Shown here: one piece after another, positions 34,653 to 47,262 of the stretch
Layout: each line of letters opens with the position of its first letter
Numbering within the stretch: the first letter of the stretch is position 1
NCBI GenBank assembly: GCA_020353515.1
Contig: CP070695.1
Location: 2,642,155-2,706,154, forward strand
Direction: 5' to 3'
From: Candidatus Heimdallarchaeota archaeon
Lineage (GTDB): Archaea > Asgardarchaeota > Heimdallarchaeia > Hodarchaeales > Hodarchaeaceae
Length of the DNA stretch: 64,000 nt
Notes under the pieces: generated by a model
The model's database searches: none
Told to the model about the DNA's origin: nothing
What the model saw: only the letters and a program-made list of their open reading frames with translations
Program-made: the position numbers and the translations under genes

Positions 34653-34825
34653 TCTTCAACTCACCAGAATTTAAAGTGTTTTGTCTCCTTAATTCTCTTT
34701 AGTTTTTTCTCTCCTGATTATGAAAATATCCTAGCTATACTCCCTCAAGAATCTATACTTTTTACTTATTTTTTTCAAGAACTAGGGATTAGGCTTCCAT
34801 CTCTCCCTTAACAAATATGAAAATA

Positions 34826-34984
34826 TGCCGAGGGTGCGATTTGAACGCACGACAACTGGATATCCATCTCACAGATGAACTGGAGACTTCAGTCCAGCGC
34901 TAACGGGATTTGATACCATTATAAAATGGTGATACTCCCGGGATTCTCATTTACTCATTAAAGTAAACTCTAAGCTACCTCGGC
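34826..34984 (-). tRNA. tRNA-Phe(GAA) with three introns (15/16, 22/23, 37/38)
   Basis: Removing 34969-34943, 34934-34902 and 34886-34862 gives a canonical 74-nt cloverleaf. Confidence 0.85.
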
Positions 34985-35069
34985 AAACGTAAATACGAAG
35001 TAATTCAGTCATTGCTAGCAAGTGATAAAAATTTTTACCTGTTTTGTAGTAAAAAATCCAAGATTACTT

Positions 35070-47041: not shown

Positions 47042-47262
47042 GCTGGGGTGGCTTAAACGATAATAATCATTTTATCGTGGCGAAGCCTGGTATAATCATA
47101 CTGTCTATAGTCAGAATGCCGAGAGCGCGGGACTCATAATCTGAGAACAATTCTCATAGCGTTCTAAGGGCACGAATCTCGCTTTCAGACGAGACATCCC
47201 GAAGTCGGGGGTTCGAATTTAGGTAAAATGCATTTTATCAAACGAAAAGCCCCCCCCCAGCA
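47042..47262 (+). tRNA. Elongator tRNA-Met(CAT) with four introns (14/15, 21/22, 37/38, 59/60)
   Basis: Exons 47042-55, 47085-94, 47123-38, 47196-217 and 47249-62 join to a 76-nt cloverleaf; each junction folds as BHB or relaxed BHB. Confidence 0.87.

Follow-up and report, generated by a model that had tools for sequence, protein, structure and literature searches.

A single detectable tRNA-Phe(GAA) gene with three predicted introns and an 8-nt D-loop exon in a Hodarchaeales-type archaeon

The Hodarchaeales-type archaeon analysed here has one detectable gene for tRNA-Phe(GAA), interrupted by three inserts, and we hold it highly likely that this gene is functional, that the inserts are protein-spliced introns with mutually independent motifs, and that they are cut by EndA and the exons joined by RtcB. 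The gene lies on the minus strand at positions 34984-34826 of the window (the whole stretch of 64,000 nucleotides that was analysed) and is made up of four exons, which measure 15, 8, 15 and 36 nt and between which lie inserts of 27, 33 and 25 nt. Exon 1 (34970..34984, minus strand as for all parts of the gene) covers tRNA positions 1-15, comprising the 5' strand of the acceptor stem, U8 and A9, the 5' strand of the D-stem (GCUU) as well as A14 and G15, and is followed by intron 1 at 15/16 (27 nt, 34943..34969), which forms the 7-bp hairpin GUUUACU/AGUAAAU. Exon 2 is an 8-nt micro-exon, CCCGGGAG (34935..34942), that supplies D-loop positions 16, 17, 17a and 18-21 together with G22; intron 2 at 22/23 (33 nt, 34902..34934) exhibits a 3' CCCG and an inner hairpin, ACCAUU/AAUGGU. 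Exon 3 (34887..34901) comprises positions 23-37, namely the D-stem 3' strand AGC, G26, the 5' strand of the anticodon stem, C32, U33, GAA and G37, whilst intron 3 (25 nt, 34862..34886) sits at the canonical site 37/38 and displays a weak central helix. Exon 4 (34826..34861) completes the molecule with positions 38-73: the 3' strand of the anticodon stem, the variable loop, the T-arm, the 3' strand of the acceptor stem and A73.

Joining the exons yields a 74-nt RNA in which all four arms are present and which ARAGORN calls tRNA-Phe(gaa). The spliced molecule has a 7-bp acceptor stem with A73 as discriminator, a D-stem formed by G10-C25, C11-G24, U12-A23 and U13.G22, a 9-nt D-loop containing G18 G19 G20, and standard anticodon and T arms; CCA is not encoded. 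Recognition by PheRS usually depends upon G20, the anticodon bases G34 A35 A36 and A73, and the spliced tRNA carries G20, GAA and A73. A sequence-only reading of the region had proposed introns of 27, 33 and 25 nt at these three sites, the helices GUUUACU/AGUAAAU in the first and CGGG/CCCG in the second, and an 8-nt D-loop exon at 34942-34935: all of these coordinates, lengths and helices were recovered, and the proposed tRNA-Phe identity is borne out by the perfect tRNA-Phe(GAA) into which the exons join.

An A/T-rich motif, GTAAAAATTTTTATCAC, is found at 35022..35038 on the minus strand, 38-54 nt upstream of position 1, and recurs almost unchanged (GTAAAAATTTTTA(A)TCAC), at an identical distance from the gene, in 10 of the 11 species compared, with the spacer around it differing; judged by this recurrence, the motif is probably a BRE/TATA-type promoter. 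On the other side of the gene, a T-rich 3' trailer, TATTTTCATATTT (34813..34825, minus strand), probably serves as the region of termination and 3'-processing, a reading that stems from sequence only. A match to the C/D-box RNA snR57 just downstream (34701-34783) was rejected, as it scores 23 bits against a cut-off of 50 and is devoid of C or D boxes. The 159-nt unspliced RNA folds at z = -5.9 relative to shuffled sequences; within a 401-nt slice, the unspliced gene was missed by both ARAGORN and the Rfam tRNA model, even at E values of up to 10. As the gene escapes the standard tRNA finders, an automatically annotated version of this genome would list no tRNA-Phe.

The exon boundaries are supported by closely related genomes. 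The 36-nt exon 4 was found in ten congeneric genomes (exact in eight, with 1-2 mismatches in two), and all ten exhibit three inserts at the identical three sites, giving 11 species when the host is included. In an 11-way alignment, only 6 of the 74 exon columns vary, and these changes are all compensatory and form three acceptor-stem pairs: exon 1 is variable at three acceptor-stem columns only, with compensating changes, and the micro-exon and exon 3 are invariant in every species. Of the 86 intron columns, 63 vary (mean pairwise identity 0.77 for intron 1, 0.56 for intron 2 and 0.67 for intron 3), and the shift in constraint coincides exactly with the predicted junctions. The structure written from bulge-helix-bulge (BHB) geometry is 90% paired across this alignment, as opposed to 35-42% once the pairing partners are slid; both sides have changed in 11 pairs, and none of 500 shuffles reached any of the observed measures. 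Within the introns, the bases that pair with exons are invariant in all 11 species (GAG in intron 1, CCCG in intron 2), the intron 1 hairpin covaries (G-C/A-U/G-U), and the inner hairpin of intron 2 both covaries and varies in length (19-33 nt). That the locus could instead be a decaying or non-functional tRNA-like pseudogene, or that its inserts are never removed, is suggested by the silence of standard finders here and by the relaxed form of two of the three motifs. We consider this extremely improbable: strong exon constraint with compensatory acceptor-stem changes extends over at least 11 species, the upstream motif is conserved, the closed genome yielded no other GAA tRNA, and with 60 additional nucleotides in the D-arm the molecule could not adopt a tRNA fold.

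The predicted splice junctions rest on this conservation together with motif geometry, for which we assumed the standard arrangement of two 3-nt bulges on opposing strands with 4 bp between them, each cut following the second base of its bulge. None of the introns displays the strict hBHBh' motif, in which a 4-bp central helix and a pair of 3-nt bulges are flanked by helices on both sides; all fit a relaxed motif that has at least 3 of 4 central pairs and the same bulge spacing and cut positions, and this is conserved among the relatives. The relaxed class by itself often arises by chance (10.64898/2026.10.13.758758), and hence it is the conservation that carries the weight for these introns. 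The outer exon-exon helix is absent from both D-arm motifs. In intron 2, the 5' bulge is A21 G22/U and the 3' bulge U U/A23 (a stroke marks the predicted cut), with all four central pairs present (C17a-G, G18-C, G19-C and G20-C, formed with the 3' CCCG of the intron), an inner helix in which A2-U27 and U3-A26 close the ACCAUU/AAUGGU hairpin, and one outer pair at most, so that the motif is of HBh' type. In case of intron 3, the bulges are A36 G37/U and A U/A38, the inner helix is present, the anticodon stem acts as the outer helix, and the relaxed central helix comprises C32-G, U33.G and G34.U with an A35.A mismatch (3 of 4). A nearest-neighbour model gives this helix a probability of only ~0.01 in all 11 species, at a ddG of ~7 kcal/mol, and thus capture of a rare fold by the enzyme has to be assumed; congeners with four introns have CUGA/UCAG (4 of 4) at the same place, which backs the geometry there. 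Since the strict BHB constraint (bulge bases all unpaired plus adjacent inner pairs) imposed large penalties on introns 2 and 3, probabilities of the central-helix pairs were added to the analysis; the folding model takes no account of tertiary structure, proteins or temperature. We also considered whether UCCAG in intron 3, which begins two bases past the 5' splice site and copies the 3' strand of the anticodon stem, acts as a decoy anticodon stem: it occurs in just 2 of the 11 species, is thus not a conserved feature, and this copy is probably incidental.

Intron 1 exhibits a relaxed HBh' motif with the bulges A14 G15/A and A U/C16, an inner helix of 7 bp and no outer helix; its central helix is formed with the GAG at the 3' side of the intron and has three of four pairs (U13.G, U12-A and C11-G, with a G10.A mismatch), the fourth being G-C or G-U in 3 of the 11 species. 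For this intron a competing register has to be weighed: a cut one nucleotide further 3' (16/17) would produce the D-loop AGACCGGGA instead of AGCCCGGGA. The first base of the intron (A) and C16 are invariant wherever intron 1 exists, and the shifted register gives AGACCGGGAG, which two congeners without intron 1 (G016 and G001) encode directly, and hence conservation alone cannot fix the register. Against this, two further genomes (G006 and G010) directly encode AGCCCGGGAG, and it is only in the 15/16 register that each cut follows the second base of a 3-nt bulge, with the helix G10-U13/GAGN between the two bulges, whereas the 16/17 register has no central helix. We therefore regard the shifted cut as very unlikely and retain the 15/16 junction.

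The sequence-only reading had further proposed that the micro-exon contributes to both flanking BHB motifs and that this sharing implies an order of excision. The first part stands in a limited form: the micro-exon touches both motifs, albeit unequally, with a single bulge nucleotide (C16) in the motif of intron 1 and a helix strand plus bulge (C17a-G22) in that of intron 2, and no nucleotide is shared between them. The second part found no support, as each motif draws on its own nucleotides and the predicted fold of lowest energy for the full precursor contains both. All eight splicing states were modelled in 9-11 species. Within the host gene, the probability of the intron 1 central helix changed from 0.52 to 0.45 upon removal of intron 2 and that of the intron 2 central helix from 0.99 to 0.93 upon removal of intron 1; for the host and most congeners, deletion of the other intron shifted energies by no more than ~1 kcal/mol and probabilities by no more than 0.07. 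As motif cost and helix probability are nearly insensitive to the other introns, folding gives no reason for a fixed order, and the structural independence of the three motifs means that none is imposed.

An obligatory order, in which one D-arm intron has to leave before the motif of the other can form or be bound, is suggested by the close spacing of the motifs: only one nucleotide (C17) separates the 3' bulge of intron 1 (A U/C16) from the central helix of intron 2, so that one enzyme cannot occupy both D-arm motifs at once. Closely set introns of which one needs to be removed first are noted in the tRNAscan-SE 2.0 paper (PMC8450103), and an order of removal has been shown for tRNA-Ile of Cyanidioschyzon merolae (PMC9602550). 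However, no nucleotide belongs to both motifs, the two occur together in the most stable structure predicted for the unspliced RNA, the small changes in energy and probability described above argue against a dependence, and in the model the D-stem reaches a probability of only 0.03 once intron 2 is removed, against 0.45 for the intron 1 helix. We judge obligatory ordering to be unlikely and continue to favour independent motifs. Should the D-arm be cut at all four sites ahead of the first ligation, hardly anything would hold the 8-mer, and hence cutting and joining should proceed intron by intron. A related and somewhat more doubtful idea is that the paired D-arm introns form a maturation checkpoint, in which the D-stem would have to wait for both removals, and the 8-nt exon would need coupled cutting and ligation by RtcB. 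The 15/16 junction lies directly beside G15. This nucleotide is the target of archaeosine transglycosylase, and an ArcTGT-like gene is present in the genome. If true, such a checkpoint would set the order in which splicing and modification of the D-loop take place, in the lineage of archaea that is nearest to eukaryotes.

The gene content of the host includes a candidate for each step of splicing, with a broad-specificity type of EndA and RtcB both present. Two EndA paralogues were found: a 183-aa alpha subunit (C1:1349002-1349547) that aligns end to end and without gaps, loop region included, with the catalytic subunit of Aeropyrum pernix (3P1Z_B, E 2e-43), and a 212-aa beta subunit (L013:1402-2040, C1:1316634 region) that has no catalytic His. 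The closest relatives of the alpha subunit come from MAGs labelled Hodarchaeota, Heimdallarchaeota or Promethearchaeota (74-90% identity), which identifies the host as an Asgard archaeon of Hodarchaeales type. Amongst structures, the beta subunit is closest to the ARMAN-2 enzyme and to the beta-like portion of the Methanopyrus kandleri enzyme; it also gives a weak match to Pfam Sen15 (E 0.0012), which is below the cut-off. The host EndA is thus of the heterotetrameric (alpha-beta)2 type with a crenarchaeal-type loop, and Asgard archaea are described as possessing an (alpha-beta)2 EndA with an L1 loop, a form of the enzyme that tolerates relaxed motifs (PMC5829648). RtcB was identified with 540 bits. 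Amongst the congeners, RtcB of G010 and of the four-intron genomes G002, G004, G013, G018 and G020 (L123-L127, L129) is only 45-50% identical to that of the host, compared to 75-91% for the others, which suggests another paralogue or a replacement in this subgroup, a paralogue being probable, and renders RtcB unusable as a phylogenetic marker.

The maturation pathway that we propose starts from a precursor of ~160-180 nt carrying introns at 15/16, 22/23 and 37/38, in which the D-arm would be replaced by two hairpins: intron 1 would borrow the 5' strand of the D-stem (C11 U12 U13 with the intron GAG) and intron 2 the D-loop (C17a G18 G19 G20 with the intron CCCG), each pairing creating a helix with 4-bp spacing through which the splice site falls after the second nucleotide of a 3-nt bulge. 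The (alpha-beta)2 EndA would then make six cuts and RtcB would join the exons, with one D-arm junction sealed again before cutting starts at the other D-arm intron, as the 8-nt exon would otherwise be lost; end trimming and CCA addition would finish the tRNA.

As to whether the cell has another source of this tRNA, the host genome is a closed single contig of 4.94 Mb (35.8% G+C) and no other GAA tRNA was detectable in it, in agreement with the single tRNA-Phe that the sequence-only reading had anticipated. BLAST searches of the genome with the mature tRNA-Phe, its exons and the tRNA-Phe of five diverse relatives did not reveal a second tRNA-Phe, a pattern search for GAA anticodon arms returned nothing else, and two 15-nt exact matches elsewhere fall in coding-like sequence. 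Since the gene is single-copy, it is presumably essential. ARAGORN, when allowing introns, reported a second "Phe" on the minus strand at C1:3963581-3963690 (L052:1423-1532), which we rejected, as comparison with 14 congeneric copies identifies it as a tRNA-Gln(CUG)-type gene (A1-U72) with a canonical 35-nt intron. This gene displays C33 in the host, while all 14 congeneric copies have U33, a base that is near-universal in tRNAs; with three other Gln tRNA genes in the genome, the C33 copy may be impaired. A separate observation concerns one relative (G014; L108, G014:C181:403-1019), where an additional tRNA-Phe that is intron-less, G+C-rich and has CCA encoded lies on a 2.7-kb contig and is probably contamination of the bin from another archaeon.

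In order to place the three introns in a wider context, 83 genomes of the class were searched for tRNA-Phe, with in silico splicing used as a check, which revealed that the number of introns ranges from zero to four. The host and the ten aligned congeners share 15/16, 22/23 and 37/38, and the same three sites are occupied in G012, where both copies are incomplete (one at a contig end, the other divergent after position 43). Five congeners possess a T-loop intron in addition, giving four in all, as checked by splicing for G002 and G004 and read from the sequence for G013, G018 and G020; this fourth intron is ~36 nt long and lies at ~59/60 (L087, L091, L102, L092 and L090, respectively, for G002, G004, G013, G018 and G020). 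Other combinations occur in further genomes: 22/23, 37/38 and the T-loop in G010, 22/23 and the T-loop in G006, and 22/23 and 37/38 in G016 and G001. The sister family has 22/23 only (G022), and one further family (G025, G033, G037 and G039) has a D-arm intron near 22/23, accompanied by a T-arm insert in G025 and by 37/38 in G033; in other families of the class the gene has either no intron or one to two, located at 37/38, in the T-loop or at both. Thus, 22/23 is the most widely shared tRNA-Phe intron. The 15/16 introns form one recognisable sequence family (AGTTT...GAGNAN) and this intron hence probably arose once; a tree of EndA alpha from 23 genomes, in which 13 of 20 inner branches lack resolution, does not polarise gain versus loss of intron 1. 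When the three introns were compared with the host genome by BLAST, both alone and including their flanks, only chance-level 12-14-mers and no paralogous intron copies were obtained. The same window also contains, at 47042-47262 on the plus strand, an elongator tRNA-Met gene with four introns (~14/15, 21/22, 37/38 and 59/60) and a 10-nt D-loop micro-exon, and thus the same layout of a double D-arm intron as seen for tRNA-Phe; removal of its four inserts leaves 76 nt that ARAGORN calls tRNA-Met(cat). Three introns in one gene are therefore not exceptional even locally. In the whole window, ARAGORN finds one tRNA gene and the Rfam tRNA model five, and most of the detectable tRNA genes of the genome cluster at ~2.60-2.83 Mb.

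Introns have been reported in 92-95% of Asgard tRNA genes (Valentin-Alvarado 2024, PMC11291895), and a recent preprint describes up to five inserts per gene, D-arm inserts that annotators miss and, as a worked example, a tRNA-Phe(GAA) with three inserts of which one is in the D-arm (Goswami et al. 2026, 10.64898/2026.10.13.758758). The present gene resembles these published cases: it has an Asgard host with a two-subunit EndA, several short introns (~20-35 nt) with BHB or relaxed BHB motifs, and at least two introns including D-arm inserts that are invisible to standard finders. It differs from them in its host, a Hodarchaeales-type genus of Heimdallarchaeia, and in the two D-arm introns that surround an 8-nt exon; the main text of the preprint does not name Hodarchaeales and gives less than one insert per gene for several lineages of Heimdallarchaeia (10.64898/2026.10.13.758758). 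Multi-intron tRNA genes with up to three introns per gene are also known from Thermoproteales (Sugahara 2008; Fujishima 2010, as cited in PMC4090602 and PMC8450103), and the two systems have in common non-canonical positions, relaxed HBh'/hBH motifs, an (alpha-beta)2 EndA with a crenarchaeal-specific loop and closely set introns. Unlike our host, the Thermoproteales are thermophiles of another phylum in which related introns recur in different tRNAs through transposition, while no intron copy is found elsewhere in the genome analysed here. A further parallel is the nuclear tRNA-Ile(UAU) of Cyanidioschyzon merolae, which likewise combines three BHB-type introns in one tRNA and for which removal of the D- and T-arm introns before the anticodon intron has been addressed experimentally (PMC3728597, PMC9602550); that gene is eukaryotic and has one intron per arm, with no micro-exon between two D-arm introns.

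The three-intron tRNA-Phe fits a habit that has already been described for Asgard archaea and leaves the current understanding unchanged. It indicates that the heavy use of tRNA introns so far highlighted for Atabeyarchaeia and Jordiarchaeia extends to a Hodarchaeales-type genus, which belongs to the archaea known to be most closely related to eukaryotes. The series of tRNA-Phe genes with zero to four introns provides a compact natural set for the gain and loss of introns and for the limits of relaxed motif recognition and, if the proposed splicing holds, an indispensable decoder can require that an endonuclease cuts its precursor six times and that three junctions are ligated.
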